A DNA stretch of 64,000 nt from an uncultured Planctomycetales bacterium (lineage in GTDB: Bacteria; Omnitrophota; Gorgyraeia; Zapsychrales; JANLHA01): assembly GCA_964474085.1 (NCBI GenBank), contig CAYYRJ010000005.1, forward strand, positions 23,244 to 87,243, written 5' to 3'. The notes under the pieces were generated by a model. It was not told where the DNA came from, searched no databases, and was given only the letters and a program-made list of their open reading frames with translations. Below are positions 10,764 to 59,325 of the stretch, in pieces (within the stretch, counting starts at the first letter, position 1; each line of letters opens with the position of its first letter). The position numbers were made by a program, and so were the translations under genes.

Positions 10764-10770
10764 AAGTCTT

Positions 10771-22993: not shown

Positions 22994-23015
22994 TCAGTTT
23001 TAAAAAAGGAATGGT

Positions 23016-44132: not shown

Positions 44133-44251
44133 AAATATATTATATTCATTGCAAGGATTGTGGACTTGAATGTACAGACTTTTCCATATAATTACGAAAG
44201 AAGTCTGTGCTATGGTAGTTTCATCTAGAAAAATAATTTAGGAAAATTACC

Positions 44252-44824
44252 ATGAAAAAAGAACTTTTGACAACCGGAGAAGTTGCTCAATACTGCCACG
44301 TGACCTATCGTGCTGTATTAAAGTGGATAGTAGAGGGCAAGCTTAAAGCCTACCGCACACCGGGTCAGCATAGCCGTGTCGCCATCAATGATTTCCTCGA
44401 TTTTTTAGAAAAATTCCATATGCCCATTCCTGCGGGCCTCGAACGAACAACACAAAAGAATAAAATTTTGATTGTTGACGATGACCAAAAAATCGCTCAT
44501 TTGGTCCGTGCCGCGCTTGAAGTCGACAGCCGTTATCAGCTCGATGTTGCTTACGACGGTTTTAGTGCCGGCCAAAAATTTTCTGCGTTTCGTCCGGATC
44601 TTGTCGTTTTGGATATTATGATGCCCGGCCTTAACGGGTATGAAGTTTGTGCGAATATCCGAAAAGATCCTGCCAATAAAGACGTTAAGATCATTGCGGT
44701 GTCCGGTTCATTTGCTGTCGAGGGAGAAGAGAAGATTTTGAAGGTCGGCGCGAATATGTGCTTGGCCAAACCTTTTGATATTGAGCAGTTAAAAGGCAAG
44801 ATCGAAAAACTTTTGGAAAAATGA
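44252..44824 (+). CDS. response regulator with reversed architecture: N-terminal excisionase/MerR-type HTH, C-terminal REC
   Basis: LTTGEVAQYCHVTYRAVLKWI HTH_17-like segment, then KILIVDDDQ...LVVLDIMMPGLNG...AKP receiver. Confidence 0.7.
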   Translation: MKKELLTTGEVAQYCHVTYRAVLKWIVEGKLKAYRTPGQHSRVAINDFLDFLEKFHMPIPAGLERTTQKNKILIVDDDQKIAHLVRAALEVDSRYQLDVAYDGFSAGQKFSAFRPDLVVLDIMMPGLNGYEVCANIRKDPANKDVKIIAVSGSFAVEGEEKILKVGANMCLAKPFDIEQLKGKIEKLLEK

Positions 44825-45573
44825 TGGATCATGCTCCGACTATTCTGATTATCGATGATGATGTTCATCTCGCAGGTTTAATGAAACGTCAGCTTGAAGA
44901 TACCGGATATGACGTCGTTGTCGCCTCTAACGGGAAAGAAGGGCTAGAGAAGTTAAAAACCATCATCCCGTCTTTGATTATTCTTGATATTAATATGCCG
45001 CAGATGAATGGTCTGGAATTTTTTCGGCACATTATGGCCGATGGTCAGCATTCTTTGTATCCTGTCCTTGTTTTGACTAGCCGCATCGAATTCGAAAATA
45101 TTTTTAAGGATGTCAACGCCGCCGGGTTTATCCCGAAGCCTTTTCTTATCAATCATTTGATCGAGGAAGTCCACCGGATTATTGCTCTTGCCCCACGCCC
45201 AATCGTATTTCTCATTGACCATTCTGCCTCAGAAACAGTGCGTCAGCTTACCAAAATTCTCATCAAAAAAAACTATGATGTTATTGGAGTAAACAGCTCG
45301 ACGGAGTTTGAAAGAATTACGCAACGGCGCAAACCCCGCTTTATTCTTTTAGAATGCGGCCAAAGTGATGGCGCCGGGGAAGAAATAATAAAAAAAATAA
45401 AAAGTTATCGGGATTTAAGTCAAGTTCCTGTTGTGGCCTATACTTACACGGTTGGAAAAAACGTGCCGATGAGCAGTTATCAGGCTGGGATCAATCAAAT
45501 TTTGCAAAATCCGCAAGACGTTGAATCGTTTCTTGCCGTGATCAAGGACATTGAATCAACGGATAAAGGATAA
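44821..45573 (+). CDS. tandem receiver protein: REC plus degenerate pseudo-receiver
   Basis: First domain has the canonical DDD...LDINMP...PKP motifs. The second is receiver-like (IVFLIDHS...FILLECG) but has Glu at the phospho-acceptor position. Confidence 0.6.
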   Translation: MMDHAPTILIIDDDVHLAGLMKRQLEDTGYDVVVASNGKEGLEKLKTIIPSLIILDINMPQMNGLEFFRHIMADGQHSLYPVLVLTSRIEFENIFKDVNAAGFIPKPFLINHLIEEVHRIIALAPRPIVFLIDHSASETVRQLTKILIKKNYDVIGVNSSTEFERITQRRKPRFILLECGQSDGAGEEIIKKIKSYRDLSQVPVVAYTYTVGKNVPMSSYQAGINQILQNPQDVESFLAVIKDIESTDKG

Positions 45574-45582: not shown

Positions 45583-47298
45583 ATGCCAACATACATCCGC
45601 AAAAGGTTCGGCGAAAGATTAGTGGAAGAAGGGCTAATTACCGCCGAGCAATTTGAGTTGGCCTTAAAAAAACACAAGGAAACCAAGGTCCTTTTGCGCC
45701 AGATTTTAGTCGACTTAGGGTTTATCAGTGAAGATAAACTCCTGGAGTTTACAGCGAAAGTCATGGGAATCCCGGTTGTCAAAGATCTCTTAAACAAGAT
45801 CACCGACCCGCAGATTGTCAAAATTGTCCCCGAAAAAACCTGTCGCCAGAATTTTGTTTTGCCTCTTTATAAAACCGCAAACGTTTTGACTATCGCGATG
45901 TTCGATCCGTTTGATGTTTTTGTTTTAGATGATCTGCAGGCGCTGACAAAATGCAAAATTGAATCGGTGTTGAGTAAAAAAGAAGATATTTTAAAGACCT
46001 TAAGTATTTTTTATGAGGAAAAAGAAAACATCGAGGAGATTGTTAAGGGCATGACTCAGGAAGCCGAAGAGCTTGAGATCATTCGAGAAACCCGCGAAGA
46101 AGAAAATGAAAAAATTGATGCTCAGGCGGTCGATGCGCCGATTATTCGCTTGGTCAATACGATTATCACACAGGCGATCAAGCAGCGGGCCAGCGATATT
46201 CACGTCGAGCCGGATGAAAAGGGTTTACGCATCCGTTATCGGATTGACGGGATATTGCGCGAAACGATGTCGCCGCCCAAACGGCTTCAGGCTCCGATTA
46301 TTTCACGCATTAAGATTATGGCGGAGATGGATATTTCCATCAAACGTCAGGCGCAGGATGGCCGTTTTAAAATCCGCGTTGAAAACAAAAATATCGATGT
46401 GCGCATTTCCTCCGTTCCGACGATTTATGGCGAAAAACTGGTCATGCGTCTGTTGGATAAATCATTTATTCAGATGGGCCTTATGGATTGCGGCCTAAGC
46501 AAAAGCTGTCTGGAGCGTTTTAGTGAACTGATCAATCGTCCTTACGGCATTATTTTGGTTACGGGCCCCACCGGAAGCGGCAAAACAACGACGCTTTATC
46601 TGGCTTTGCAAACGCTCAATTCCCCCGACAAAAACATTATCACCATTGAAGAGCCTGTCGAATATGACCTTGAGGGGGTCAATCAGATCCCTGTCAACAG
46701 CAAGGCGGGGATTACCTTTGCTAAGGGGTTGCGTTCGATTTTGCGGCAAGACCCGGATGTGATCATGGTCGGTGAGATGCGCGATTTGGAAACAGCGGAT
46801 GTTGCGGTACGTGCCGCTTTGACGGGACATTTGGTATTTAGCACTTTGCACACCAATGATGCTTGTAGCTCGATTATACGGTTAATTGACATGGGGATCG
46901 CTTCTTATCTTGTAACCTCGTCGATCTGTTGTGTTTTGGCGCAACGTTTGGTGCGTACGATTTGCGATAAATGTAAAGAAGCTTATACGCCCAGTCAAGA
47001 ACAGTTGGATTCTGCGGGGATCAAAGCTTCTGTGTCAGAAGTGACATTTTATCGTGGAAAAGGTTGCGAAGATTGCGGGCAGACGGGTTTTCGCGGGCGC
47101 ACAGGTCTTTTTGAACTGATGGTCGTCGACAAAAAGTTGCGGCAACTGATTCATGAGGGACAGTCGGTCGATGCTCTGCGCAGTGCATCGCAAAAGTCAG
47201 GGATGAAATTTTTGTGGGATGACGGGTTAGAAAAAGTGCTACAAGGACAGACAACGATCGAGGAACTCAAGCGGGTTACTTTCTTGGAGGGGGAATAA
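45583..47298 (+). CDS. pilB: type II secretion/type IV pilus assembly ATPase (GspE/PilB)
   Basis: N-terminal GspE_N domain, Walker A GPTGSGKTT, Asp/His boxes, tetracysteine CxxC...CxxC motif. Confidence 0.9.
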   Translation: MPTYIRKRFGERLVEEGLITAEQFELALKKHKETKVLLRQILVDLGFISEDKLLEFTAKVMGIPVVKDLLNKITDPQIVKIVPEKTCRQNFVLPLYKTANVLTIAMFDPFDVFVLDDLQALTKCKIESVLSKKEDILKTLSIFYEEKENIEEIVKGMTQEAEELEIIRETREEENEKIDAQAVDAPIIRLVNTIITQAIKQRASDIHVEPDEKGLRIRYRIDGILRETMSPPKRLQAPIISRIKIMAEMDISIKRQAQDGRFKIRVENKNIDVRISSVPTIYGEKLVMRLLDKSFIQMGLMDCGLSKSCLERFSELINRPYGIILVTGPTGSGKTTTLYLALQTLNSPDKNIITIEEPVEYDLEGVNQIPVNSKAGITFAKGLRSILRQDPDVIMVGEMRDLETADVAVRAALTGHLVFSTLHTNDACSSIIRLIDMGIASYLVTSSICCVLAQRLVRTICDKCKEAYTPSQEQLDSAGIKASVSEVTFYRGKGCEDCGQTGFRGRTGLFELMVVDKKLRQLIHEGQSVDALRSASQKSGMKFLWDDGLEKVLQGQTTIEELKRVTFLEGE

Positions 47299-47304
47299 TA
47301 TTTT

Positions 47305-48522
47305 ATGCCGATGTATTCTTACAAAGTGCGAGATAAAGCTGCAACAATTCACAACGGCCAGATGGAAGCCGCTGATGAACGTGATTTGCGCCGTAAGCTC
47401 GACGAGCGGGAATATTTTATTATTGACTATAGCCGGCTTACGAGTAAAAAAGAGTTTTTGTTTAAATCGATTTCTTTTGGTTTGGGGCATGCCAGTTATA
47501 CAGATTTAGCGCTTATCAGCTGGCAGTTTTTTACGTTGTTAAATGCTGGCCTGACATTGAGTAACAGTTTAACGATCATCATCAACCAGACAAAAAACGA
47601 AGTTTTAAAAACAGCTTTAAGCCGGGTTTATAGCCGTGTTGAAGCAGGTTCGACGTTTTCTGATGCCCTTAAAGAAAGCCCGAAAGTTTTTTCAAGGTTT
47701 TATGTGCAGATGGTCAATGCTGGCGAGGTTGGCGGAGTTTTAGACGAAATGTTAAAAAGGCTGGCCATCTATTATGAACGTCAAGCTGAAATCAGTTCCA
47801 AAATAAAATCTGCAATGATTTATCCAGCGCTGCTATTGACAGTCTCTTGTGCCGTTATCATGTTTTTGGTGATGTTTGTTCTGCCTCAGTTCTCCAGCAT
47901 TTTTAAGGAAATAGGGGTGAGCCTGCCTGTGCCCACACAGATGCTTTTGAGTTTTAGCGCGATGTTAAGGACATATTGGTTGATATTTATCGGCGCAGCA
48001 CTTGGATTGTGCACTTTGGGGTGGGTCGTTGTTAACACGGATCAGGGCGGGTATCAATTTGATCTGTTGAAATTAAAGCTTCCTGTCATCGGGGGGTTGA
48101 TTAACAAATCCGTGACGGTTCAGTTTACGCAAACGTTGTCGACCTTAGTCAGTGCTGGAATCCCGATTCTTTCGGCTTTGGATGTCGTCACAGATACCAT
48201 TGGCAATAAAGCTATTGTCAAAGTGCTCAAAAAAGTTTCTTCGTTTGTTGAACAAGGCAAACCGATCGCCCAGCCTTTGGAAGAAAGCCGGATGTTTCCT
48301 GACATGCTGATTAACATGATTCGTGTCGGCGAGGAAACCGGCTCCTTGAGCAACATGCTCGATAAAATCGGCGAATTTTATTTCAAGGATGTTAATAATG
48401 CTGTCGAATATTTTACAAAAATGATTGAGCCGACCTTGATGGTGATTATGGCTGGAATTATTGGCTTTATTACAACATCGATTTTTTTGCCCTTGTCGAG
48501 TTTGCTGCAAACGATTCGTTGA
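47305..48522 (+). CDS. pilC: type II secretion/type IV pilus platform protein (GspF/PilC)
   Basis: Two T2SSF repeats; about 400 aa; 3 TM segments. Confidence 0.9.
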   Translation: MPMYSYKVRDKAATIHNGQMEAADERDLRRKLDEREYFIIDYSRLTSKKEFLFKSISFGLGHASYTDLALISWQFFTLLNAGLTLSNSLTIIINQTKNEVLKTALSRVYSRVEAGSTFSDALKESPKVFSRFYVQMVNAGEVGGVLDEMLKRLAIYYERQAEISSKIKSAMIYPALLLTVSCAVIMFLVMFVLPQFSSIFKEIGVSLPVPTQMLLSFSAMLRTYWLIFIGAALGLCTLGWVVVNTDQGGYQFDLLKLKLPVIGGLINKSVTVQFTQTLSTLVSAGIPILSALDVVTDTIGNKAIVKVLKKVSSFVEQGKPIAQPLEESRMFPDMLINMIRVGEETGSLSNMLDKIGEFYFKDVNNAVEYFTKMIEPTLMVIMAGIIGFITTSIFLPLSSLLQTIR

Positions 48523-48544
48523 CGATAAAGAAAGGCTTTAGCCG

Positions 48545-48949
48545 ATGTCAGTGATGAAAAAAGGATATACGCTGATGGAAGTCATCATGGTTGTCTTTAT
48601 CGTCGGGCTTTTGTCTTCTCTGGTTGTCATGCGGTATGATTCGCAGAGAAAAAGAACCGCGATCAATGTGACTAAAGCAAACTTAGAAAGTATCCGCACG
48701 GCGATAGCTTTTTATTATGAGGTTGAAGGCACATGGCCTGTCGGCAACTTATCTGAACTTTATCTAGGGACAGCCCCTAGCGGTAAAATATATTTGGGCA
48801 AGCTGCCTTCCGAAGAGATCACCCACAAAAATTCGGTTACCAATGTTTCGACGAATACGGGCGGATGGTTTTATGATTTACCGACGCATACGATTATTCC
48901 AAACTTGACGGGAACAGATGCCACGGGTGTTCTTTATTCGACATATTAA
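48545..48949 (+). CDS. prepilin-type pseudopilin (GspG-like major subunit)
   Basis: KKGYTLMEVIMVVFIVGLL N-terminal methylation motif (G/YTLME) and hydrophobic helix. Confidence 0.7.
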   Translation: MSVMKKGYTLMEVIMVVFIVGLLSSLVVMRYDSQRKRTAINVTKANLESIRTAIAFYYEVEGTWPVGNLSELYLGTAPSGKIYLGKLPSEEITHKNSVTNVSTNTGGWFYDLPTHTIIPNLTGTDATGVLYSTY

Positions 48950-49010
48950 ACGTGAGGTGCAAGTCGGTAAAAAAAATTTGCACACGGCGTTATGAAGTGG
49001 GGATTTTAAA

Positions 49011-49466
49011 ATGAAGGTTTCTAAAGGGTACACTTTACTGGAAATGGCGATGGTCTTAGGCATCCTTGCCATAGGGATGATGATCATTATCCCCAAAATG
49101 GTCAGCCTAATGAATGTTTGGGATTTGGATATTGAAATTAATAAACTCAAAGCCAAAATCAGGCAAGCGCAGAATTTGGCGATTGCCAAACAGGCTACTT
49201 ATCGGATGACTTGGGATATTCCGGGTAAGGTTTATACGCTCAAGAAGTTCGATGGGGTCAGTTTTGTTCTTCAGGAAACCAATGGATATCAAAACAATGT
49301 TAGTGTAATAAATACGACATTTATCATTAACCCAGGGTCGGTGGATTTTGATCAATTTGGATCTCCGTCGGAAGCTGGAATGATTATGTTGCGGCATGAA
49401 AAAACGATGGCTTCAAAATATATCCAAATTTCGGCTGTCACTGGGCAATTATCGGTGTTCCCATGA
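49011..49466 (+). CDS. prepilin-type minor pseudopilin (GspH-like)
   Basis: SKGYTLLEMAMVLGIL N-terminal motif. Confidence 0.65.
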   Translation: MKVSKGYTLLEMAMVLGILAIGMMIIIPKMVSLMNVWDLDIEINKLKAKIRQAQNLAIAKQATYRMTWDIPGKVYTLKKFDGVSFVLQETNGYQNNVSVINTTFIINPGSVDFDQFGSPSEAGMIMLRHEKTMASKYIQISAVTGQLSVFP

Positions 49467-49840
49467 AAAAGAAACAGAAAGGTTTTAGTTTAATCGAGCT
49501 TCTTGCCGCGGTTGTTGTCACAGGCGTGATGGCGGTATCGATTATGAATCTGTATTCTTTTGGAGGACAGATGAATTTTCTTGTTGAGGAAGATTTAGCT
49601 GTTACCAATCTGCTTCAATATAAGATCGAAGAGATCCGCTGTCAGCCTTTTACAAAAAATATCACTGTGACAGATCAGGTAATTACAGGCTTTGGGAAAT
49701 ATAAATTGAGTGCGACCCAAACGGTGCCGTATTTGGGTAATCCGTATTTAAAGAAGGTGCACGTCAGCTGTATTTATCCGTCGGGTGTGGGGGTTAATAA
49801 GACAGAACAGATTGATTTTTTGGTTGGGGACAAACAATAA
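49463..49840 (+). CDS. prepilin-type minor pseudopilin (GspI-like)
   Basis: QKGFSLIELLAAVVV N-terminal motif; start overlaps the upstream stop. Confidence 0.65.
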   Translation: MKKKQKGFSLIELLAAVVVTGVMAVSIMNLYSFGGQMNFLVEEDLAVTNLLQYKIEEIRCQPFTKNITVTDQVITGFGKYKLSATQTVPYLGNPYLKKVHVSCIYPSGVGVNKTEQIDFLVGDKQ

Positions 49841-49855
49841 GAAAGGCCCAAAGAA

Positions 49856-50410
49856 GTGACTCGGGTGCGTAATATCAAAGGATTTACTCTTTTGGAAGCC
49901 ACTTTGGCCGTTGCGATCAGCGCCCTTCTGTTAGGTTCGCTTTTGCTAGTTTTCAAAGTGGGAAAATCAAGCTGGAATGTCAGTAATCAGCAAAGCGAAC
50001 TTTTGCAACATGCACGGACGGCTATGGCGCGTTTAAGTTCGGAATTGCGTTATGCGACAGGTTTAACGCAGGCCAATTTGCTTGGTGTTGAGTTTACAAC
50101 CAAGGTTTTGGTCGATTCGGATAATACGACGACAGAAACGATCCGTTATGAAGTTGTCGGTAATACGATTCAACGTTCTGTCAACGCTGGGACAAAGCAA
50201 ATTGTGGCAGGCGATGCTTTGGCTGGCGGGGTTATTGCAAAATTTTATAGTGTTACTCCAGTCAAGCTTGATGCTGGGTTTAACGTTGCCCCCTTGGATA
50301 CTCTTGACCCGTTGTCCCTAGCTATCGGGCTTAGGGTTGCGATGAGTATGCAGGACACGCATTTAAAGACGGTCGTAGTTTCTACAATGGCGAATTTTAG
50401 GGATAAGTGA
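49856..50410 (+). CDS. prepilin-type minor pseudopilin (GspJ-like)
   Basis: GTG start; IKGFTLLEATLAVAI N-terminal motif. Confidence 0.65.
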   Translation: MTRVRNIKGFTLLEATLAVAISALLLGSLLLVFKVGKSSWNVSNQQSELLQHARTAMARLSSELRYATGLTQANLLGVEFTTKVLVDSDNTTTETIRYEVVGNTIQRSVNAGTKQIVAGDALAGGVIAKFYSVTPVKLDAGFNVAPLDTLDPLSLAIGLRVAMSMQDTHLKTVVVSTMANFRDK

Positions 50411-51585
50411 CGGGACAAATGAAAGAAAAGAAATTTAACCCGGATTTTGCATTAGCCACGCTCCTGCGAGGCCAAGCAAAATCCGCCCAAAGGGCCGCAT
50501 GTCTCGACAAAGTCGAGACGTGTGGGATAAATAACAGGGGAGTCGCTTTTGTTACGGCAATTGTCTTGATGGTTTTATTTTTAAACTTGGGTCTAGGGTA
50601 TTTGATGATGGCCAGAACTCAACTTATGATTGCCCGCAATCAAATCAGTACGCTTAAGGCTTTTTATCATTCAGAAAGTGCACTGCAGCATTCGATCGCT
50701 GAGCTTGTCAACAATGTGGATAAAGATGCCGACGGCTTGGGCAATATTCCTTTGCAGGATTTGGATGGGGATGGAAGTATGGATTATTCGGCAACATATA
50801 ATTCTGCAACAGGAACTGTTTCTTCGACAGGGAACACAGGGACCGACGGGATTGTGCGCACGATTGAAACAAAGATGACGCCTAAAAAGTGGACAGGAGC
50901 GTTTATGGCGGGGCTGAGCATCCCCGCTGTGAGCAATTGTGATTTTAGCACGGTTACAGGCAATGTGTTTGCGCGCAGTGCAATTACACCAAATTTTACG
51001 ACACAGCACACAGTAACTGGTACAGTCACACAAGGCTATGCGTCTTTAGCTATTCCGACAACAATCACAAGCCCGGGTGGGCCATGGTTTAGTTATGCGC
51101 CGGCAGCAAACAGGCATGTCAATTGCCTGTGGGTTACGCCAGCATCCTCGACGATCACAGGGGTGCATTATGTCAATGGAGCTTGCACGATTAATTTGGG
51201 AGGATCAGCGCCTTTGACGATTAATGGATCATTGATCGTCAATGGGAATTTGTCTATTTCTCAAGTGACCAGTTTGATGATAACGCCTGCCGGCAAAGAC
51301 CCGGCCTTGGTTGCCTCAGGAACTTTAAGTTTAGGAAATGTCTCGCCGGGTGTTGTCAATATTCATGGGCTGATTTATGCCGGAGGCAATATATCTTTGA
51401 CGATATGGAATTTTTTCCCGACCCCGAGACATTCGATTAATGGGGCTATTGTTAGTGGGGTAGGGACTATTAGTATGGCTACGATTGCCAGGACGGACTG
51501 GGTGTTTGATTCTTCTTTGAATCCACCATTTTTTACCGGCGGAAGCCCCGGATATTCCGTCGACTATTGGAAGGGACATAAATAA
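50407..51585 (+). CDS. GspK-like minor pseudopilin/pilus tip protein
   Basis: N-terminal RGVAFVTAIVLMVLF...ARTQL hydrophobic segment lacking Glu5, followed by ...YHSESALQHSIAEL, as in GspK; Thr/Gly-rich C-terminal domain with a DGDG motif. Confidence 0.45.
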   Translation: MTGQMKEKKFNPDFALATLLRGQAKSAQRAACLDKVETCGINNRGVAFVTAIVLMVLFLNLGLGYLMMARTQLMIARNQISTLKAFYHSESALQHSIAELVNNVDKDADGLGNIPLQDLDGDGSMDYSATYNSATGTVSSTGNTGTDGIVRTIETKMTPKKWTGAFMAGLSIPAVSNCDFSTVTGNVFARSAITPNFTTQHTVTGTVTQGYASLAIPTTITSPGGPWFSYAPAANRHVNCLWVTPASSTITGVHYVNGACTINLGGSAPLTINGSLIVNGNLSISQVTSLMITPAGKDPALVASGTLSLGNVSPGVVNIHGLIYAGGNISLTIWNFFPTPRHSINGAIVSGVGTISMATIARTDWVFDSSLNPPFFTGGSPGYSVDYWKGHK

Positions 51586-51601
51586 TTTTATAGAGGTTGC
51601 C

Positions 51602-52942
51602 GTGATGGAAAAGACATTAGGACAATATAAGATCGTCCGCGAAATTGCTAAGGGCGGCATGGGCATTATTTACAAGGCTTTAAATCCAGCGACGCAAAAA
51701 ACTGTGGCCATCAAAGTTCTTCCGCCGATGATGGTTGATCGCGTGACGGTTGAGCGGTTTCATCGTGAAGCGCAGGCGATGACCCAGTTAAAACATCCTA
51801 ATATGATTGAAGTTTATGAGTCAGGGATGCAAGAGGGGAAACATTTTCTCGTCATGGAATTTGTTGAAGGCGATAATCTTAAGAATTTGATTACAGCCAA
51901 AGGGCCGCTGCCGATTGAACGCGTCATTAAAATAAGCGTTTGTGTTGCTGATGCGCTAGCGCATATGCATCAGAGGGGAATGATTCATCGCGATATCAAG
52001 CCGGGCAATATTATGATTTTGCCCGACGGACGAGTTAAGTTGATGGATTATGGTTTGGTCAAAATTTTAGGACGCACAAGTGTCACGGTCGAAGGTTCTT
52101 CTTTGGGCACCGCAGAGTATATGTCGCCTGAGCAAATTACAGGGGAAGGGGTAGATAGCCGCACAGATATTTATTCTCTGGGGATTACGATGTATGAAAT
52201 GGTCACCGGCCGTCTTGCTTTTGAAGCCGACACGTTGCAGGAGTTGTTGCACAAACATCAAACACAAGCTGCCTTGGCGATTTCTGCACTTAGGCCGCAA
52301 GTTCCGTTCGAATTAGAATCGATGATCAACAAGGCGATGGCTAAAAATCTTGTGAACCGTTATTCTTGTGCGCAGGATTTAAAAAATGATTTGCAGAAGT
52401 TATCGAAAGAAGATGATCACGCTCAAAGCGCAACTCAAACCGATCTTACCCAAAAGGCACCCATTTTTTCGAGGCCCAACGCTGCTGGCCGGCCCCAAAA
52501 GGCCAAAGGCCTAGCTTGGGGAAAAATGTTTGCCCTTGTGGTTTGCGCAGCACTTATTTATTTTTATCGGGACAAGGCGACCGACATTTTTAAAAAAGTG
52601 CCGTGGAATAAATTTGCCGTAACGGTTGGGCAAAGGGATTTGGTAAAAGAAACGAATATTACCTTAACACTTCTAGAACAGGCCCAAGCGCATTTTGATC
52701 AGGGACAATCTTTTGCTCGTCAGGGATTGTCCGATGAAGCGATTTCTGAGATTCAAAAGGCCCTGCAATTAAGAGCGGATGAGCCGGTGTATTACAAACA
52801 ATTAGCTTTAATTTATGAAAAGAAAAATGATTACAAAAAGGCTATAAAGGCTTGGAAAGATTTATTAAAATACGAAAACGATGCGGCCCAAATCAAAATC
52901 GCACAGCAGCATATTGAACAATTAACAGCGACTAAGAATTAA
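51602..52942 (+). CDS. Hanks-type Ser/Thr protein kinase with C-terminal TM helix and TPR domain
   Basis: GxGxxG (AKGGMGIIY), VAIK, HRDIKPGNIM, DYG, TAEYMSPE motifs; TM around residue 300; TPR-like C-terminus. Confidence 0.85.
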   Translation: MMEKTLGQYKIVREIAKGGMGIIYKALNPATQKTVAIKVLPPMMVDRVTVERFHREAQAMTQLKHPNMIEVYESGMQEGKHFLVMEFVEGDNLKNLITAKGPLPIERVIKISVCVADALAHMHQRGMIHRDIKPGNIMILPDGRVKLMDYGLVKILGRTSVTVEGSSLGTAEYMSPEQITGEGVDSRTDIYSLGITMYEMVTGRLAFEADTLQELLHKHQTQAALAISALRPQVPFELESMINKAMAKNLVNRYSCAQDLKNDLQKLSKEDDHAQSATQTDLTQKAPIFSRPNAAGRPQKAKGLAWGKMFALVVCAALIYFYRDKATDIFKKVPWNKFAVTVGQRDLVKETNITLTLLEQAQAHFDQGQSFARQGLSDEAISEIQKALQLRADEPVYYKQLALIYEKKNDYKKAIKAWKDLLKYENDAAQIKIAQQHIEQLTATKN

Positions 52943-52978
52943 GGTTGAGTTTCATCTATCAACAGGTCAAATGGATCT

Positions 52979-54667
52979 ATGCCAAAGTTATTGATAAAAA
53001 ATGGGGAACGAAAAGGTTCTGTGATCCGGGTTGGTGATCAAAAATTAGAGCTTGGTCGCGATCCGTCTAACACGGTTGTGATTCCTGACAGGCGTGTTTC
53101 TCGACGGCATGCATCGATTTTTTCTCAAGCTGGGGAGTGGTGGATTGAAGACTTGGGGTCTGTCAACGGCACGTTTGTCAACGGCCAGACCGTGCGTAAA
53201 GGGAAGTTGCAATTTTGCGATCAAATCATGTTGGGGGCAACGGTCATTGAATTTTTGCAACTCAACGCACCCGAAGATCGCCAAACGGACGGATTGACTC
53301 AGGTGCGGTTGCTTTCAGCGCAGGAGAATGTGTCTAAAAGCAATGTGGTGATGTCGCTTTCAACTGCGTCGGGCAGTTTTGAAAAAAAAGATTTTCCCGC
53401 CGATCCAAAATCTTTGTTGGAATTATACCAGAGGTTATTGACGGTTTATCGGATCAGCCTTGATTTGGGTGTTGTTGTCGACCTTAAAAAACTTTCGTTT
53501 CGGATATTGGAATCTGTTTTAAATGTGATTAAAGCGGACCGTGGATTTATTATGTTGAAAGATGAGGAAACTCAGCAACTGATTCTACAAGCTGTTTATC
53601 GAAGGCCGGGAGTTGATGAAAGCGAAGAGATTTCTTTGTCACAAACCATTGCCCAACAAGTTATGCACAGCGGCGAATCGCTTTTGATTTCGGATGCGGG
53701 GTTAGATGAGCGTTTTAAACAAGCACAGAGCATTGTCATCCAGGGGATCCGCTCAACGATGTGTGTTCCCATAAAAATCAAGGATCGGATTTTAGGAATT
53801 CTCTACGTCGACACAAAAGGCAAGGTCGCCAGCTTTGTTCGCGAAGATCTTGAAATGCTAACCGCGATTTCTCATCAGGCGGCGGTGGCTATCGAAAATT
53901 CGCAGCTGTTTGACAATTTGCATAAAGTCAATGAGGAGCTCAAACAACAGCAAGCCCAATTGATTGAGTCCGAAAAATTATCCGCCTTAGGCCAATTAGC
54001 CGGCGGGGTTGCGCATGAGATCAATAATCCGATGACGAGTATTTTGGGATATTCGCAGTTGATTGTTGGACAGCTGGGGAAAGAGAACTTGGATGCACAC
54101 AAAATAAAAGAATGTGCCGAATTTGCGGGTATTGTCGAGAGTGAAGCCCATCGTTGCCAGGCGATCGTTCAAACTCTTTTGCAATTTGGCCGCCGTAAAA
54201 AAGAAGAAATGGTGGCGATGGATGTCAATAAGGCCATTGAAGCAGCTCTTCTGATTGCGAAATTTCACATTAAAAAAACGCACATTGAAATCAAACAGCA
54301 ATTGTCGTCTGGCTTGCCGGCGATTATGGCTGATGCCAATCAATTGCAGCAGGTTTTTTTGAATTTGATTATTAATGCACGCGATGCGATGGAAAAAAAT
54401 GGAGGAACGTTACTTATCAGCTCGTGCGACTCAGCAGAAGGTCACGTGATTGTCAAGTTTGCGGATACCGGGTGTGGTATTCCGGAGGATAAATTAGATG
54501 AGATTTTTAAGCCTTTGTACACGACTAAAGAAGAAGGCAAAGGGACTGGTTTAGGATTATCGATTACTCAAGACATTCTTGAACTTCATAAAGCAAAGAT
54601 TGAAGTTGAAAGCACCGTCGGAAAAGGAACGACTTTTACAATACGTTTCCCGGTGATAGGCGGATAA
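52979..54667 (+). CDS. FHA-GAF sensor histidine kinase
   Basis: N-terminal FHA (LGRDPSNTVVIPDRRVSRRHASI...GSVNGTFVNG), central GAF, H-box GVAHEINNPM, HATPase_c N/G boxes; no TM. Confidence 0.8.
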   Translation: MPKLLIKNGERKGSVIRVGDQKLELGRDPSNTVVIPDRRVSRRHASIFSQAGEWWIEDLGSVNGTFVNGQTVRKGKLQFCDQIMLGATVIEFLQLNAPEDRQTDGLTQVRLLSAQENVSKSNVVMSLSTASGSFEKKDFPADPKSLLELYQRLLTVYRISLDLGVVVDLKKLSFRILESVLNVIKADRGFIMLKDEETQQLILQAVYRRPGVDESEEISLSQTIAQQVMHSGESLLISDAGLDERFKQAQSIVIQGIRSTMCVPIKIKDRILGILYVDTKGKVASFVREDLEMLTAISHQAAVAIENSQLFDNLHKVNEELKQQQAQLIESEKLSALGQLAGGVAHEINNPMTSILGYSQLIVGQLGKENLDAHKIKECAEFAGIVESEAHRCQAIVQTLLQFGRRKKEEMVAMDVNKAIEAALLIAKFHIKKTHIEIKQQLSSGLPAIMADANQLQQVFLNLIINARDAMEKNGGTLLISSCDSAEGHVIVKFADTGCGIPEDKLDEIFKPLYTTKEEGKGTGLGLSITQDILELHKAKIEVESTVGKGTTFTIRFPVIGG

Positions 54668-54694
54668 ATTTTTCAACAAACCATTTGAGGCCAA

Positions 54695-55816
54695 ATGACG
54701 GAATCTCAGTTTTTTAAGAAAATCGCGCAGGGCTTAATGACTCCGGTTAAATTTCAGGGCGGGGATTTCCTGGAGAATATGTTAGAAAAAGGCGTGCGCG
54801 TTGTTGTCGATATTGGATCAAGTTCGATAAAGATCATCGAAGTTCAGGCAACATCAAATGGCCCTCTCGTCAGAACTGTGGCTTATCGTGAATTCCCACG
54901 TTCTCTTGACTCTAAGGGGTCTATGCCAGCGCAGGCGCTTATTGAGCAAACTTTGGTTGATTTATGGCGCAGTCATAAGATACGGCCGGGCGATGTGCGT
55001 TTGATTATTTCTGATCCGGCGGTGTATTTGCGGTATTTGACGATTCCGCGGATTGAGGAGCAGGAATTACAAAAAGCCTTGCGATGGCAAATTGAAAAAT
55101 ATGTGCCGTTTGCGATTGAAGAGGCCAGCATTGATTATCAGATCGTCGATCATGAAGGCCTAAAAGATAAAACTCAAATGCGGATTATTGTTGTTGCGGT
55201 CGAACGAAAGGTCATTGATAAATATTTGGGGATTTTAAAGGCCGTTAAGGTCGTTCCAACGGTCATTGATATTGCGGCGTTTTCTGCGGCGAAAGCGGTT
55301 ATGAAAATGAGCCCTGCCAATTCGCAGCAAACAGTTTTAGTCGTCGATATCGGGGCGCATACGATATCGATGGTCGTTTTTAAAGCCCGTGTGCTTTTGA
55401 TGGTTCGCAGTATTGAAAATGCCGGCGATCAGATGACGCGCATGATCAGCGAAACCTGCACAGTCGACATCATGACGGCCGAAGATTTAAAGCGTCAGGC
55501 CGTTCTTTTTTTCGATGAGAAATCAGCTTCTTCTCATAATAAAGTGTTAGCTGTTATGCAAACAATTTGTCAACAGTGGGCCCAAGAGATTGATCGTTCA
55601 TTGACGTACTGTGAACGGGAAGGACTCGCAGAGACAATCGACAAAATTATTCTTTGCGGGGGCTCGGCCAAACTTAAAGGCCTTGATCAATTTGTTGCCA
55701 GCCAGTTGGGGTTGCCTGTTGAAGTTGTTAATGTTGCCAAACACATCCCTTGCGAACAACTCGACGCTCAAGGGTTGGCGACAGAGTTTTTGGCCGCTTA
55801 TGGCGGGTTGTATTAA
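54695..55816 (+). CDS. pilM: type IV pilus assembly protein PilM (actin-like ATPase fold)
   Basis: VVDIGSSSIKIIEV N-terminal actin-like motif, about 370 aa; immediately followed by pilN/pilO-like genes. Confidence 0.75.
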   Translation: MTESQFFKKIAQGLMTPVKFQGGDFLENMLEKGVRVVVDIGSSSIKIIEVQATSNGPLVRTVAYREFPRSLDSKGSMPAQALIEQTLVDLWRSHKIRPGDVRLIISDPAVYLRYLTIPRIEEQELQKALRWQIEKYVPFAIEEASIDYQIVDHEGLKDKTQMRIIVVAVERKVIDKYLGILKAVKVVPTVIDIAAFSAAKAVMKMSPANSQQTVLVVDIGAHTISMVVFKARVLLMVRSIENAGDQMTRMISETCTVDIMTAEDLKRQAVLFFDEKSASSHNKVLAVMQTICQQWAQEIDRSLTYCEREGLAETIDKIILCGGSAKLKGLDQFVASQLGLPVEVVNVAKHIPCEQLDAQGLATEFLAAYGGLY

Positions 55817-55839
55817 ACATTTCTCCAAGAGGAGTTTTT

Positions 55840-56376
55840 GTGCGACAGATTAATTTATTGCCCGAATCTTTGCAGCAGGCGCAAAATAAAAAGAAAATTT
55901 TAAATTCTTTTTTTGTCACATTGATTCCGACGGTATTCGCGGTTGGAGCCATTCATGTTTTGACGATATTGTTTATTGCGAATTTAGAAGGCCAGGTCAA
56001 ACATCCTGCCGCGAATATGGACACTATGGAATTTATGGCCTTGCGGGAAGAAATCCAGAAAAAATCAGAGGATGTCCAAAAATATACACAGCAGTATGGG
56101 GCACTTATCAACAGTTATATGGACAATTTTTTATCCCAGGATATTTTAAAAGCTCTCGGAGCTATCAGCCATCATAAAGTTTGGTTTACGCGTTTTGAAT
56201 TGAATAATAAAAATCGGGCATGTGAAATTCAGGGCAAGTCTTTTAATACGCGCTTAGTCAGCGAGTTTATGTTAGGGGTCAAGAAAGCGCCTTTTTTTGA
56301 TAATGTGACATTGATTTCAATGGAAAAAGGGCAGGATGAGAAGGTCAATTTTAAGATCGTCTGTGTGCTTAAGTAA
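55840..56376 (+). CDS. pilN: type IV pilus assembly protein PilN
   Basis: GTG start 5 nt after AAGAGGAG; N-terminal RQINLLPE PilN motif, single TM. Confidence 0.65.
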   Translation: MRQINLLPESLQQAQNKKKILNSFFVTLIPTVFAVGAIHVLTILFIANLEGQVKHPAANMDTMEFMALREEIQKKSEDVQKYTQQYGALINSYMDNFLSQDILKALGAISHHKVWFTRFELNNKNRACEIQGKSFNTRLVSEFMLGVKKAPFFDNVTLISMEKGQDEKVNFKIVCVLK

Positions 56377-56413
56377 CCGGTTTTAGAGGCTGTTTGCGGG
56401 AGATTGTCGTCGG

Positions 56414-56989
56414 ATGGATATTGATATCAAAAAAATTTATAAGATCGAGTTTTGGCTGGTTGCCATTATTCTTTGTGCTTTTTTTGTTTTGGATATTTAT
56501 CCTCAAGCGATTCGTATTTTTTCACTCTTGCAGACGATAGATGTCTCCCGGAAAACGGCCTTGGCTTTGCCGCCGCAAGAAAAGGAAAGAATTCGTCAGG
56601 AATTATTAAACGATAAAAAAAGACTCGACGAATCTGACGGGGCGATGCGCGGGATTGTCAGCAGTATCGAGCAAAAGATATCCGGTGAAAAGAGCATTCC
56701 TAACATTACTTTGAAATTAGAAGAATTGTCAACCGGTTGCGGGATTGATTTATTGAGCATCAAGCCATCGGCGTTAATCTCGGAGGGCGGCTATGATGCA
56801 TTTACCATTGACCTGGAGTTTGAAAGTGAATATGGACAGTTGATTAATTTTTTGTCGCTCTGGGCGCAGACACCGTTTTATTTAACAGTTGAACAGGTGA
56901 CTGTTTCTAAATCCAAAGAGACATCTTTAAAACTGGATGTCAATCTTAAACTCAAGGTGCTTTTTAAGCAGGAACCCAAAACTTTGTAA
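56414..56989 (+). CDS. pilO: type IV pilus assembly protein PilO-like
   Basis: Single TM, coiled-coil segment, PilO-like C-terminal domain; position after pilN. Confidence 0.5.
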   Translation: MDIDIKKIYKIEFWLVAIILCAFFVLDIYPQAIRIFSLLQTIDVSRKTALALPPQEKERIRQELLNDKKRLDESDGAMRGIVSSIEQKISGEKSIPNITLKLEELSTGCGIDLLSIKPSALISEGGYDAFTIDLEFESEYGQLINFLSLWAQTPFYLTVEQVTVSKSKETSLKLDVNLKLKVLFKQEPKTL

Positions 56990-57010
56990 GATTTAAAAGG
57001 CGTACGGATC

Positions 57011-57487
57011 ATGAGCCAACGTGAAAAATTTATAGGGATTATTTTATTGGCCCTTGCTGTTTTGTGTGTGGTTGTGTTTAGCTCGCGACATTTTCCCGTT
57101 TCAGTTCCCGACGGAAAAACAGTTCAAGAGATTAAGAATGGCGTTACTGCGACAAAAACGCCGGCGCAGGATTCCAAAGACGATTTTAAGCGAATGGTCG
57201 ACAAAGTTATGCTTCAAAATCAGCCTAAGCAAGCAAGCGAACCGGTCGACCCTTTTAGAAAATTTGAACTCCGGGATCTTATGGAGGGTAATATTTTAGA
57301 ATTCTCTGAGCTGAAATTAATTGGGATTGTGATGGATGAGGAAATCACAGCGGCCTTGATCAATGATGAAATTTTGTATGTTGGTGATGAGATATCCGGG
57401 TTTAAAGTCACAGAAATTCTTGCGAATGAAGTTTTTTTAACCCGGGGGCTTGAAAAATATACTTTGAAGCTATTTGAAGAACAGTGA
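57011..57487 (+). CDS. PilP/GspC-like pilus assembly lipoprotein-like protein
   Basis: N-terminal TM/signal; C-terminal beta domain (FKVTEILANEVFL) resembling PilP; position after pilO. Confidence 0.4.
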   Translation: MSQREKFIGIILLALAVLCVVVFSSRHFPVSVPDGKTVQEIKNGVTATKTPAQDSKDDFKRMVDKVMLQNQPKQASEPVDPFRKFELRDLMEGNILEFSELKLIGIVMDEEITAALINDEILYVGDEISGFKVTEILANEVFLTRGLEKYTLKLFEEQ

Positions 57488-57533
57488 CACAAAGAACGGA
57501 TGTTGCACAAATGTTCAAGGAGGTCGACGAGAA

Positions 57534-57911
57534 ATGTCCCCAATTAAGATTTTAGTGATCGAAGACGATCCGGTTATTATTCATATGAATGAAAGATTGT
57601 TAGGCGAGAAAGGATACCAGGTTATCACCGCCCGTGACGGCTTAGAGGGAATTGACCGAGCCTTGGATGAAAAACCGGATCTTATCCTTTTGGACATCAT
57701 CTTGCCTCGAATGCACGGGTTTGAGGTCTGCAAACTTTTAAAATTAAATCCTGCGACAGGACATATTCCTATCATTTATTTGACGGGGACCGGTTTAGAA
57801 GAGGTGGCTCAAAATGAACCCGAAATTAAAGCCCAGGGGTACATTGCCAAACCGTACGATATTAACGCACTAGATAATCTTATCCAAGAAGTCCTCAAGA
57901 AAAACCATTGA
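57534..57911 (+). CDS. single-domain response regulator (REC)
   Basis: ATG after AAGGAGG; KILVIEDDP...LILLDIILPRMHGF...AKP. Confidence 0.8.
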   Translation: MSPIKILVIEDDPVIIHMNERLLGEKGYQVITARDGLEGIDRALDEKPDLILLDIILPRMHGFEVCKLLKLNPATGHIPIIYLTGTGLEEVAQNEPEIKAQGYIAKPYDINALDNLIQEVLKKNH

Positions 57912-57935
57912 GGACTATATTAAGGAGATCCCGCC

Positions 57936-58505
57936 ATGGGACAACACGAAAAAGCGAGCAAGCGTCAATTAAAGATTCTTGTTATCGAGGATGATCCGAC
58001 GATCATTAAAATATATGAACGGATATTATCCAATGACGGCCATCGGGTTGTTAGCGCACTGACTGGAGCGCAGGCGGTCGCTAAACTTAAGGATGAATCT
58101 TTTGATTTGGTTTGTTTGGATTTAAAACTTCCGGATATGGACGGGATGGATTTATTAAAATTGATCAAAAGAAAAGTCGAGTGGATTCCGGTTATTATCG
58201 TGACCGCTAATCCTTCTTTGGAATCTTCCCTTGAGGCTTTAAATGCGGGAATTGTCACCGAATATATCACAAAACCGTTTGATACCAAGGAGCTTGTGAT
58301 AACTATTCGCCAGTCCGTCGAGAAAGCAAAACTTCTTTTAGATAATAAGAGATTATTAAAACGACTTGAAAATACAAACAAGGCCCTGACGGAGCGCGTT
58401 GAGCAGCTTGAAGAATTTGCGAAAGATTCTGTGAAGTTGCAGAGGCGGATCACAGAATTAAATGCGTATGTCGAGTCTTTGGGCAAAAAGTTTCCCGGCG
58501 CTTAA
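57936..58505 (+). CDS. response regulator: REC with C-terminal coiled-coil extension
   Basis: KILVIEDDP...LVCLDLKLPDMDG...TKP receiver, then about 60 aa of heptad-rich sequence. Confidence 0.75.
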   Translation: MGQHEKASKRQLKILVIEDDPTIIKIYERILSNDGHRVVSALTGAQAVAKLKDESFDLVCLDLKLPDMDGMDLLKLIKRKVEWIPVIIVTANPSLESSLEALNAGIVTEYITKPFDTKELVITIRQSVEKAKLLLDNKRLLKRLENTNKALTERVEQLEEFAKDSVKLQRRITELNAYVESLGKKFPGA

Positions 58506-58560: not shown

Positions 58561-59325
58561 GTGAAAATAGGTTTATTTTCAGATATTCACAGTAATCGCG
58601 AAGCTTTCGAAAGCGTTTTAAGCGCTTTAAAACAGGCCAAGGTTGACCGGTATATTTTTTTGGGAGATCTTGTCGGCTATGGCGCCAGTCCACGTGAATG
58701 TATTGAAATGTTAAAAAGATTAATCGACGAGAAAGGGTGTTTATGCATCGCCGGAAACCATGATTATGCCGTTTGCGGGTTAACAGTGTATGAACATTAT
58801 GCTTTAAATGCCAAGACGTCGATTGAGTGGACAAAAAAGCAGCTTAACTCTCAGGAGTTAAAGTTTTTGGCGGATTTGCCCTTGGTGGGCGATTCACGTC
58901 ATTCTTTTGGGGGAGACGAATTTTTGGAACAATTTACGATCGTCCACGCGAATTTGTTATCGCCAAAAGATTGGCGGTATATCTGGGATATTGATGATGC
59001 TTTTGAGAGTTTTCAAATACTTCAACATCGGCTGTGTTTCGTCGGGCACTCGCATAAACCGCTTGTTTTTACGTGCGGATCGATTGTCGATTGGTTTATC
59101 CGCGACCAGATCCCTTTAAAGAAAGATTTGAAATATATTATAAATGTCGGCAGCGTCGGACAGCCCAGAGACGGTAATCCGAAAGCTTGCTATGCGATTT
59201 ATGATACCCAAACGGATCTTGTGACGATTGAACGTATCGATTATGATATTCCAACGGCCCAAGCTAAAATTATTTCTGCTGGCCTTCCCAAACTTCTTGC
59301 CGACCGTCTAGCGACGGGAAAGTGA
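58561..59325 (+). CDS. calcineurin-like metallophosphoesterase
   Basis: GTG start; SDIH, GDLVGYG, GNHD and GHSH motifs. Confidence 0.8.
   Translation: MKIGLFSDIHSNREAFESVLSALKQAKVDRYIFLGDLVGYGASPRECIEMLKRLIDEKGCLCIAGNHDYAVCGLTVYEHYALNAKTSIEWTKKQLNSQELKFLADLPLVGDSRHSFGGDEFLEQFTIVHANLLSPKDWRYIWDIDDAFESFQILQHRLCFVGHSHKPLVFTCGSIVDWFIRDQIPLKKDLKYIINVGSVGQPRDGNPKACYAIYDTQTDLVTIERIDYDIPTAQAKIISAGLPKLLADRLATGK

Follow-up and report, generated by a model that had tools for sequence, protein, structure and literature searches.

Closest described systems

Bacteria of the Omnitrophota are uncultured, mostly ultra-small and thought to be predators or parasites, and type IV pili (T4P) are among their few candidate contact organelles. 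The locus described here comes from an Omnitrophota genome, in keeping with the unusual lineage that an earlier, sequence-only reading of this DNA had suspected. It occupies positions 45583 to 57487 of a 64,000-nucleotide stretch of contig CAYYRJ010000005.1 (the window, whose numbering is used throughout) and encodes a motor ATPase, a platform protein, five pilin-like proteins, PilM, PilN, PilO and a PilP-like protein, with two protein kinase genes between the pilins and pilM. We hold with moderate confidence that it specifies a type IVa pilus (T4aP)-like filament machine, made up of motor, filament subunits and periplasmic alignment complex, together with its own signaling circuit.

According to the searchable text of Seymour et al. 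2023 (PMC10066038), TXSScan detects T4aP clusters in nearly all Omnitrophota, where a role in host attachment was proposed; T4aP are expressed in V. archaeovorus, and the clusters often lie within 10 kb of type-2/3 F-type ATPases. No F-type ATPase is encoded in the window, and identity with those ATPase-linked loci was rejected on this ground. Embedded kinases, a PilX-beta-helix pilin and an unlinked secretin go unmentioned in that searchable text, and the supplements contain no pilQ, pilT, pilD or "secretin" strings. The locus described by West-Roberts et al. 2023 is a different one, which contains gspD/rcpC and lies beside giant genes. We found no account in open-access text of a module of Ser/Thr kinase, FHA-histidine kinase, receivers and phosphoesterase, of a PilX-beta-helix pilin or of clade-wide secretin unlinking. 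T4aP clusters in Omnitrophota have been known since 2023; the embedded phosphorelay appears to be undescribed.

With the T4aP of Myxococcus xanthus and Pseudomonas aeruginosa the locus shares an MshEN-bearing, probably PilB-type ATPase, PilC, PilO, a PilP-like protein with a modeled HR domain, PilM and an INLLP-containing PilN encoded as separate genes, and four priming minor pilins that include a Glu5-less one of PilX_N type. It differs from them in forming one operon-like block with the gene order of type II secretion system (T2SS) and Com operons, in lacking a pilQ downstream of pilP and a pilT or pilD in the vicinity, in its small, GspG-like major pilin, in carrying a beta-helix fused to the PilX-like pilin instead of a PilY1, and in the Ser/Thr kinase and FHA-histidine kinase placed between pilins and pilM. 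The resemblance to the T2SS (Gsp/Xcp, as in gspC-O of E. coli K-12) lies in the E-F-G-H-I-J-K order followed by platform genes, in one major and four minor subunits of which the last lacks Glu5, in an HR-domain protein and in an ATPase core that is about 50% identical. Unlike a T2SS, the locus has unfused PilM and PilN in place of GspL and an additional MshE-type cyclic di-GMP (c-di-GMP) module on the ATPase; it lacks the PDZ or coiled-coil part of GspC, encodes neither GspD nor GspO within the operon, and has no protein with a GspK fold and none that reaches a T2SS cut-off.

The MSHA pilus of Vibrio cholerae is similar in the tandem c-di-GMP-binding motif of its ATPase, MshE, and in having no linked retraction ATPase. 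This motif is insufficient for MSH membership because it is shared with many PilB proteins. MSH loci contain MshI, MshJ, MshK and the secretin MshL, plus MshM and MshN; none of this set, MshL included, was seen at the window locus, for which no dedicated Msh models were run.

Precedents for pairing a Ser/Thr kinase with an FHA-domain reader are M. xanthus EspA with PktA5/PktB8, the P. aeruginosa PpkA-Fha1-PppA system acting on the type VI secretion system (T6SS), and Sulfolobus ArnA/ArnB with ArnC/ArnD. The window likewise pairs a Hanks-type kinase with an FHA reader, and its FHA-histidine kinase matches the EspA model NF052573, making EspA the closest domain analog. It departs from all of these in that both genes of the pair lie within the pilus operon of a bacterium, that the FHA reader doubles as a GAF-histidine kinase, proposed to feed CheY-like receivers, and that the candidate phosphatase is a calcineurin-like phosphoesterase and not a PP2C. 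The regulated machine of Sulfolobus, the archaellum, is a relative of type IV filaments (PMC5007285).

A kinase module conserved within the locus

The study stretch lies inside a run of about 20 closely packed genes on the + strand, which begins at 42900 or 44252, ends at 59325 and is followed by a tRNA-Pro gene at 59453 that marks its end (Table 1). The open reading frames (ORFs) named by the sequence-only reading are all present at the coordinates it gave, with domain scores far past chance; these include the pilin gene 10 kb upstream as well as the two receivers and the metallophosphoesterase that close the locus. The tRNA-Pro was the sole family matched when the locus was scanned with Rfam.

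Table 1. Coordinates of the pilus-like locus and associated features in the 64,000-nucleotide window. Values after family names are E values; scores are given with their cut-offs in parentheses.
Positions	Strand	Feature	Support
35816-36247	+	Orphan prepilin, leader MKSNSSG|FTLMEI	N_methyl 2.6e-5
42900-43322	+	Single-domain response regulator (receiver, REC), possible upstream part	Response_reg 5.6e-22; membership uncertain
43503-44132	+	Transglutaminase-like/LapG-like cysteine protease with N-terminal signal anchor, possible accessory	Transglut_core 5.8e-8
44252-44824	+	HTH_17-REC response regulator	Response_reg 6e-26; HTH_17 7e-9
44821-45573	+	Tandem REC-REC protein	Response_reg 1.6e-32, two stretches
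45583-47298	+	Probable PilB-type extension ATPase	T2SSE 1e-138; MshEN 4e-15
47305-48522	+	PilC/GspF inner-membrane platform	T2SSF 4e-64, two repeats
48545-48949	+	Major (pseudo)pilin, 134 aa	N_methyl
49011-49466	+	Minor pilin 1, GspH/FimU/ComGD position	N_methyl 8.8e-5; ComGD 1.2e-10 and GspH 1e-3, both below cut-off
49463-49840	+	Minor pilin 2, GspI/PilV/ComGE position	N_methyl 9.4e-8; weak ComGE match
49856-50410	+	Minor pilin 3, GspJ/PilW/ComGF position	N_methyl 8e-5; weak ComGE, ComGF and GspJ matches
50407-51585	+	Glu5-less PilX_N-family pilin with C-terminal right-handed beta-helix, tip-subunit position	Family profile; AlphaFold2 (AF2) fold
50434-50526	+	93-nt structured repeat element inside the PilX-like gene	Comparison with L006; folding
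51602-52942	+	Receptor-type Ser/Thr kinase, Hanks-type, with TPR	Pkinase 5.7e-54; TPR_2 1e-8
52979-54667	+	Soluble FHA-GAF-HisKA-HATPase histidine kinase	FHA 5e-19; GAF 4e-18; HisKA 2e-11; HATPase_c 5.5e-26
54695-55816	+	PilM, actin-like cytoplasmic alignment protein	PilM_2 (PF11104) 1e-41; TIGR01175 166.7 (133)
55834-56376	+	PilN, one transmembrane helix	PilN (PF05137) 1.1e-9, 38.6 (22.8)
56414-56989	+	PilO	PilO (PF04350) 2.7e-5, 24.8 (22), marginal
57011-57487	+	PilP-like protein, 158 aa	Fold match only
57474-57911	+	Single-domain receiver, CheY-like	Response_reg 2.4e-23
57936-58505	+	Receiver with C-terminal coiled-coil extension	Response_reg 1.6e-27
58561-59325	+	Calcineurin-like metallophosphoesterase	Metallophos_2 2.6e-19; PDB 3rqz 6e-41

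We compared the locus with related loci taken from one genome per GTDB species, to which a metagenome scan added two, and assessed synteny by searching the fetched sequences with the window proteins (tblastn). The closest pilM loci are in Candidatus Omnitrophota metagenome-assembled genomes (MAGs). Proteins identical to some of the window are also found in environmental assemblies. Three of them (L007, L008 and L009, with PilM identities of 35-38%) keep the whole order: ATPase, PilC, pilins 1-4, PilX-like pilin, Ser/Thr kinase, FHA-histidine kinase, PilMNO, PilP-like protein, one or two receivers and phosphoesterase. Six others (L002, L004, L006, L010, L025 and L026) keep it in part. The FHA-histidine kinase gene is the immediate 5' neighbor of pilM in each of the 10 clade loci with upstream sequence (L002, L003, L004, L006-L010, L025 and L026). 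Every clade locus that covers the stretch from the pilins to pilM has both kinases there, on the same strand throughout and with spacers of 17-37 nt. In L007-L009 the FHA-histidine kinase (48-57% identity) and the Ser/Thr kinase (43-49%) are better conserved than most structural parts, such as PilM or the PilX-like pilin (26-33%), as is the phosphoesterase in L007 and L008; in L006 the Ser/Thr kinase is 88% identical. Neither of these kinases occurs in the control pilM loci L011-L022 (Deinococcus, Bacillota, Patescibacteria, Planctomycetia and Legionella).

The sequence-only reading had taken the kinase genes for an interruption of the locus. Their synteny down to 35% PilM identity contradicts this and excludes a recent insertion, and the gene comparison indicates that they are conserved members of the locus. 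The 3' genes follow the same pattern in part. The CheY-like receiver is syntenic and 51-72% identical in L002, L004 and L007-L009, and the coiled-coil receiver is syntenic in L002, L004, L006, L008, L009 and L026. The phosphoesterase is 51-70% identical in L002, L004, L007, L008 and L026 (51-53% in L007 and L008) and 93% identical in L006. Receiver genes also lie directly upstream of the ATPase gene (42900-45573), where the REC-REC gene ends 9 nt ahead of it; L001 shows the same adjacency, and L007 has a REC fragment ahead of its ATPase gene.

The signaling proteins have intact catalytic and phospho-acceptor motifs. The Ser/Thr kinase combines a cytoplasmic kinase domain (HRD, VAIK and SPE motifs), one transmembrane helix (about residues 301-322) and periplasmic TPR, and the FHA-histidine kinase has the phosphothreonine-binding residues GR...SRRH...NG and no transmembrane segment. 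All metal-binding motifs of the metallophosphoesterase (DxH, GD, GNHD, H and GHxH) are present. The coiled-coil receiver resembles NosR-type REC-HD-GYP proteins over their N-terminal 174 residues but has no HD-GYP domain, and the true start of the CheY-like receiver is probably M21 (57534).

Some observations on the relatives stand apart from these comparisons. The contig of L010 (SUPR01000126.1), which carries a bacterial block of FHA-histidine kinase, pilMNOP and two receivers, is binned as "Candidatus Helarchaeota," an Asgard archaeon, and is probably mis-binned. L006 and L008 (CAZWOH/CAZBSU) come from MAGs labeled "uncultured Planctomycetales"; these labels are doubtful because the locus is of Omnitrophota type, in one case with 93% PilM identity. 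Just downstream of the locus in L007, a distant Omnitrophota MAG, at 15057-16538, is a gene for a membrane-anchored GAF-HD-GYP (HD_5) protein, likely a c-di-GMP phosphodiesterase.

Motor ATPase and platform

Residues 8-59 of the ATPase form an MshE-type c-di-GMP-binding motif (NF053729, score 53.9 against a cut-off of 38), in which the RFGERLVEEGLITAEQFELALKKH and LLRQILVDLGFISEDKLLEF motifs are visible; a Walker A sequence (GPTGSGKTT) and a tetracysteine motif are also present. Over its full length the best PDB match is M. xanthus PilB (507 bits), Geobacter PilB and Thermus PilF also being among the top matches. In a neighbor-joining tree (386 core columns, 200 bootstraps, four bona fide GspE references), the Omnitrophota ATPases group with the ATPases of pilM-linked loci from Patescibacteria, Bacillota and Planctomycetia with 100% bootstrap support, and the GspE sequences form a separate clade (93%) that leaves the window ATPase outside; this placement is indicative only because the tree is small, distance-based and poor in references. 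For the platform protein, GspF (359 bits) and PilC (355 bits) score almost alike, both below their equivalog cut-offs.

Alignment proteins

PilM, PilN and PilO pass curated thresholds, upholding the pilMNO-like genes of the sequence-only reading. Among 5.8 billion clustered proteins, just six are close relatives of PilM, and identity beyond these falls to 29%. PilN begins with the PilM-binding motif RQINLLP and is encoded separately from PilM, unlike in the fused GspL. With homologs of 178 aa, its start is most likely the GTG at 55834, compared with the TTG at 55750 of the mechanical ORF. Scores for the T2SS counterparts remain below threshold (PilM, T2SSL 21.1 against 25.5; PilO, T2SSM_b 17.9 against 21.7).

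The pilP-like gene also stands, by its fold alone: the protein has no above-threshold sequence-family match and no PF04351 match, its GspC_delta score is weak (20.5 against 150), and a sequence-only PDB search with it returned nothing useful. Its layout comprises an N-terminal membrane anchor, a disordered linker and a C-terminal HR (secretin-N0-binding) beta-domain, which the AF2 model predicts with pLDDT above 90 over residues 100-155. The top nine PDB matches found with Foldseek are PilP (3jc8_Pa, 2y4y, 2lc4 and 2ivw), the HR domain of GspC (3oss_C and 6hcg_e) and GspB (4wfw); the match to 3oss_C, GspC HR crystallized on GspD, has a template-modeling (TM) score of 0.70 and a root mean square deviation of 2.4 A. 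The HR domain of PilP and GspC docks the inner-membrane platform onto the N0 domain of the secretin, and the modeled C-terminal domain is assigned to this secretin-binding fold.

Major and minor pilins

The four consecutive ORFs from 48545 to 50410 each have an N_methyl match and the prepilin site G|[FY][TS]L[LMI]E, with Glu5 present. The leader of the major pilin is MSVMKKG|YTLMEV, and its gene directly follows pilC in L007-L009 as well. A profile of four major-pilin sequences finds Geobacter PilA-N (4e-14), GspG (4.5e-11) and Neisseria PilE (1e-9) at similar levels. The NCBIfam pseudopilin models of the T2SS all stay below cut-off (GspG TIGR01710, 42 against 88.85; GspH TIGR01708, 19-28 against 80; GspJ TIGR01711, 18.3 against 64.85), no Pfam match to T2SSI, T2SSJ or T2SSK was found among the locus proteins, and a sequence-only PDB search with the fourth pilin gave nothing useful.

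The pilins are rich in N-x-S/T sequons overall: the major pilin has four in its 134 residues, and the PilX-like protein has five. Downstream of the locus, in the window (61924-63687), in L006 and in L007 (17590-19611), is a gene for a multi-pass membrane protein with C-terminal TPRs, whose L007 homolog matches PMT_2, a GT-C glycosyltransferase family. Pilin glycosylation is a possibility that the sequons and this PMT_2-type neighbor suggest.

The fifth pilin and its repeat

The fifth pilin was described in the sequence-only reading as a GspK-like protein lacking Glu5. Glu5 is indeed missing, the predicted cleavage at G45|V46 (site G|VAFVT) placing Thr at +5; the GspK identity did not hold. The protein itself matches no Pfam or NCBIfam family, PilX_N at significance and PF03934 included. 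A profile built from nine relatives retrieves 578 cluster representatives at E of 1e-10 or less among 1.84 billion, and 33 of 97 sampled relatives match PF14341 PilX_N, a few of the sample matching DUF7305, bactofilin-like or ice-binding-like beta-solenoid models. The AF2 model (pLDDT 75 overall, above 90 in the beta-helix part) has a helix at residues 9-67, a small sheet and a right-handed beta-helix at 214-331. In Foldseek searches with this model, a DUF3494 ice-binding/adhesin beta-helix matched at 7e-5 and no GspK structure was among the matches; a sequence-only PDB search yielded nothing useful. GspK is thus excluded by both fold and family, its alpha-helical insertion domain not appearing in the AF2 model, and the protein is, as modeled, a pilin of the PilX family, in the tip position, to which a beta-helix is fused. 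ComZ of Thermus thermophilus (6qvi) offers an analogy, in that a minor-pilin-type N-terminus carries a large beta-solenoid head at the presumed filament tip. As a fold match ComZ is weak (rank 14, TM score 0.16-0.20), the two sequences show no similarity, and the window beta-helix is nearer to DUF3494/ice-binding-like adhesin domains.

The 392-aa ORF had also been taken for an unusually large tip subunit. Its homologs have 341-363 aa, and the length is inflated because a 93-nt repeat lies in frame in the leader-coding region, ahead of the predicted cleavage; without it, the protein has about 350 aa, compared with 327 for E. coli GspK, so that this claim falls. The element folds into two hairpins (minimum free energy -50.7 kcal/mol, z = -7.0), has no Rfam match and is missing from the equivalent site in the 93%-identical relative L006. 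That locus has its own copy at 166-74, in reverse orientation at the junction of pilins 2 and 3, 91% identical and with compensatory stem changes. Two unrelated proteins, P0130 and P0131, have about 35 aa in common with the element, which looks like a small mobile repeat of the REP/MITE (repetitive extragenic palindrome/miniature inverted-repeat transposable element) kind.

Secretin, prepilin peptidase and retraction ATPase

The sequence-only reading had noted the absence of a secretin, prepilin peptidase and PilT from the window, and two kinds of search agree with it. Pfam scans covering nearly every ORF of 110 aa or longer detected none of the three in the 64 kb, and tblastn with E. coli GspD, HofQ and GspO and the window ATPase found nothing else in the window at E<1, a single ATPase of the PilB/PilT superfamily being present. 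The same tblastn queries were positive in control loci, locating a secretin downstream of pilM in nine and a peptidase in L011, L014 and L015. PF00263, GspD/HofQ tblastn and a secretin-motif scan also found no secretin in any clade locus. The unlinked secretin is a feature of the clade and not an accident of the window edge, since no clade locus has one while nine control loci do.

Because the modeled HR domain needs a partner, the genome probably encodes a secretin outside the locus, and the same applies to a prepilin peptidase because five class III signal peptides need one. An AsmA-family gene at 40299-42782 points to an outer membrane and hence to a diderm envelope. We rejected a monoderm-type, secretin-less T4P, given this gene and the HR domain of the PilP-like protein. 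As a separate observation, L011 has its secretin homolog (12887-14044, downstream of pilM) in a MAG labeled Patescibacteria, which is unexpected for a lineage usually held to be without an outer membrane and could stem from mis-binning or from the protein being used in an unusual way.

Pilus, secretion system or neighbors

Several observations weigh against a T4aP-like machine with its own circuit. Five pilins in an E-F-G-H-I-J-K order are what T2SS and Com operons typically have; in other pilM loci, pilC and pilM are separated by just one or two pilin genes. With PilM plus PilN at the place of GspL, PilO as GspM and PilP corresponding to GspC, the locus is colinear with gspE-F-G-H-I-J-K-L-M, and the T2SS core order recognized in the sequence-only reading is confirmed against the E. 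coli gsp operon. The ATPase falls below both equivalog cut-offs (PilB TIGR02538, 635.8 against 675.65; GspE TIGR02533, 624.5 against 630.25), and its catalytic core is 50-52% identical to GspE compared with 45.5% to A. baumannii PilB (445 bits versus EpsE, 416 versus M. xanthus PilB). The phylogenetic placement that the sequence-only reading proposed as a check is therefore mixed, the tree, with its limits, putting the ATPase outside GspE among pilM-linked ATPases and core identity putting it slightly nearer GspE. The best, though weak, NCBIfam match of the major pilin is GspG (in its N-terminal half). The window and the related Omnitrophota loci yielded no secretin, no prepilin peptidase and no PilT-type ATPase; the phosphoesterase is missing from L009 and L010; and the signaling mechanism as a whole is drawn from domain logic and synteny. 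The gene order, the ATPase core, the GspG match and the lack of a nearby PilT speak for a divergent T2SS, in which a short GspG-like pseudopilus with four minor caps would push folded exoproteins through a secretin, with unfused PilM and PilN serving as GspL, PilO as GspM and the PilP-like protein, with its weak GspC_delta match, as GspC. The best full-length annotated match of the ATPase among plasmid records likewise belongs to a Comamonas locus annotated as T2SS, which has the same order and 45% ATPase identity. We nevertheless regard a T2SS as unlikely: PilM, PilN and PilO pass their models and no T2SS-specific model reaches cut-off, PilM and the INLLP-bearing PilN are separate, the tip subunit is of the PilX_N family and not GspK, the ATPase lies outside the GspE clade in the small tree and carries a c-di-GMP module of PilB/MshE type, and the secretin is unlinked, whereas T2SS operons normally include gspD. 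Of the T2SS/T4P hybrid proposed in the sequence-only reading, the T2SS order and a mild GspG and GspE resemblance stand; the hybrid character does not extend to family membership, only T4P families reaching curated thresholds. Nor is a GHIJK-like set followed by pilMNOP in itself a mosaic, because GspG-K and PilA/FimU/PilVWX are homologous sets. The idea of the same reading that one machine serves as both pilus and secretion pseudopilus finds no support; the HR-type fold of the PilP-like protein argues for a secretin elsewhere.

The E-F-G-H-I-J-K order is also that of comGA-GG, which, together with the ComGD, ComGE and ComGF models as best weak matches of the minor pilins and a beta-solenoid tip head with ComZ among its fold matches, speaks for a DNA-uptake pilus like those of Thermus and the Com systems, in which a short and dynamic filament would bind DNA through a large tip pilin. 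The Com family scores are all far under their cut-offs, DUF3494 adhesin/ice-binding beta-helices match the head better than ComZ does, and Pfam scans of the window found no ComEA, ComEC or DprA gene, and we consider a competence pilus very improbable. Somewhat less improbable, though still doubtful, is that kinases, receivers and phosphoesterase are mere traveling neighbors that regulate something else. Omnitrophota loci are crowded with receivers (about eight in a row after L002, at least nine in the window), signaling genes occur at variable positions (an extra REC in L007 and an extra histidine kinase in L009, both between pilins 1 and 2), and the phosphoesterase is absent from two loci. 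The fixed place of the two kinases in every covering clade locus, their narrow spacers, the persistence of the arrangement at 35% PilM identity and the lack of these kinases in pilM loci of other phyla argue instead that the module belongs to the machine.

On the T4aP-like reading, the locus could work as follows. Prepilins would be processed by a peptidase encoded elsewhere, the four minor pilins would prime assembly and expose the beta-helix as the adhesive tip of the filament, the PilB ATPase would be licensed for extension by binding c-di-GMP and work on the PilC/PilMNO platform, and the filament would leave through a secretin encoded elsewhere. The TPR part of the membrane Ser/Thr kinase would sense a periplasmic or envelope cue and the kinase would autophosphorylate on Thr; the GAF-histidine kinase would dock on this phosphothreonine through its FHA domain and would phosphorylate the two CheY-like receivers 3' of pilP and perhaps also those 5' of pilB. 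The receivers might then act on the motor or the alignment complex in the manner of Pseudomonas PilG/PilH, and the metallophosphoesterase might reset the circuit, either as a PPP-like protein phosphatase or by hydrolyzing a nucleotide that the GAF domain binds. In view of the proposals made for Omnitrophota, the machine would likely serve to attach the cell, under regulation, to surfaces or to the cells of hosts or prey. The sequence is compatible with a long pilus that retracts, with an adhesive pilus that does not, and with a pseudopilus for secretion. More tentatively, and with less confidence than in the T4aP-like reading, the locus might represent an Omnitrophota-specific machine between T4aP and T2SS, with T2SS/Com gene order, unfused PilM/N/O/P and a PilX pilin fused to a beta-helix adhesin, its secretin uncoupled or lost and its activity gated by an envelope-sensing phosphorelay, that serves ultra-small host-dependent bacteria as a contact-triggered device for attachment or attack.

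If the module controls the machine, it would be a new wiring of eukaryote-like kinase signaling into a bacterial type IV filament system, for which we know of no comparables other than the regulation of the Sulfolobus archaellum and of the T6SS, and it would indicate an envelope or contact cue as the trigger of attachment. With its T2SS/Com order and unfused, T4aP-type alignment proteins, the locus is also useful for the question of how T2SS and T4aP diverged. Its practical weight is limited by the lack of a cultured host and by a core machine of known kind.

Further observations in the window and related loci

The Comamonas locus mentioned above (L035) lies on the C. odontotermitis plasmid NZ_CP083452.1 at 301539-309482. 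Its T2SS-annotated genes include one for a full-length ATPase of MshEN type, and the GspL position is taken by a 438-aa "PilN domain-containing protein", making the locus another system that blurs the boundary between T2SS and T4P.

The protease encoded among the receivers 5' of the ATPase gene has a hydrophobic segment at residues 14-40 and a weak match to LapG (3.2e-5), an adhesin-releasing cysteine protease. Its sequence, together with the c-di-GMP-binding ATPase, hints at c-di-GMP-controlled adhesion. The orphan prepilin gene is preceded by a gene for a small lipoprotein (35252-35686, lipobox LAFSGC, no Pfam match) and followed by dinB; a tie between this prepilin and the same machine is unproven.

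The receiver-domain genes of the window lie at 2677-3486 (- strand), 3624-4037, 20699-23369, 30107-30511, 42900-45573 and 57474-58505, and a hybrid PAS-histidine kinase-REC gene with an Hpt gene is also present; the receiver genes that follow L002 span 4748-12502. ORFs of 446, 168, 332 and 230 aa without a Pfam match fall at 13615-15458 (- strand), 23393-24391 and 26074-26766, the 332- and 230-aa ORFs flanking a TPR protein gene beside the hybrid kinase/Hpt genes. Nearly all genes of the window (1-64000) are on the + strand, and GC skew is positive throughout, with a cumulative skew that rises monotonically, which places the whole window on the leading strand of one replichore. Directly 5' of gapA, at 4142-6150, are two tandem 334-aa GalT/HIT-like paralogs (galactose-1-phosphate uridylyltransferase-like, DUF4921/DUF4931).

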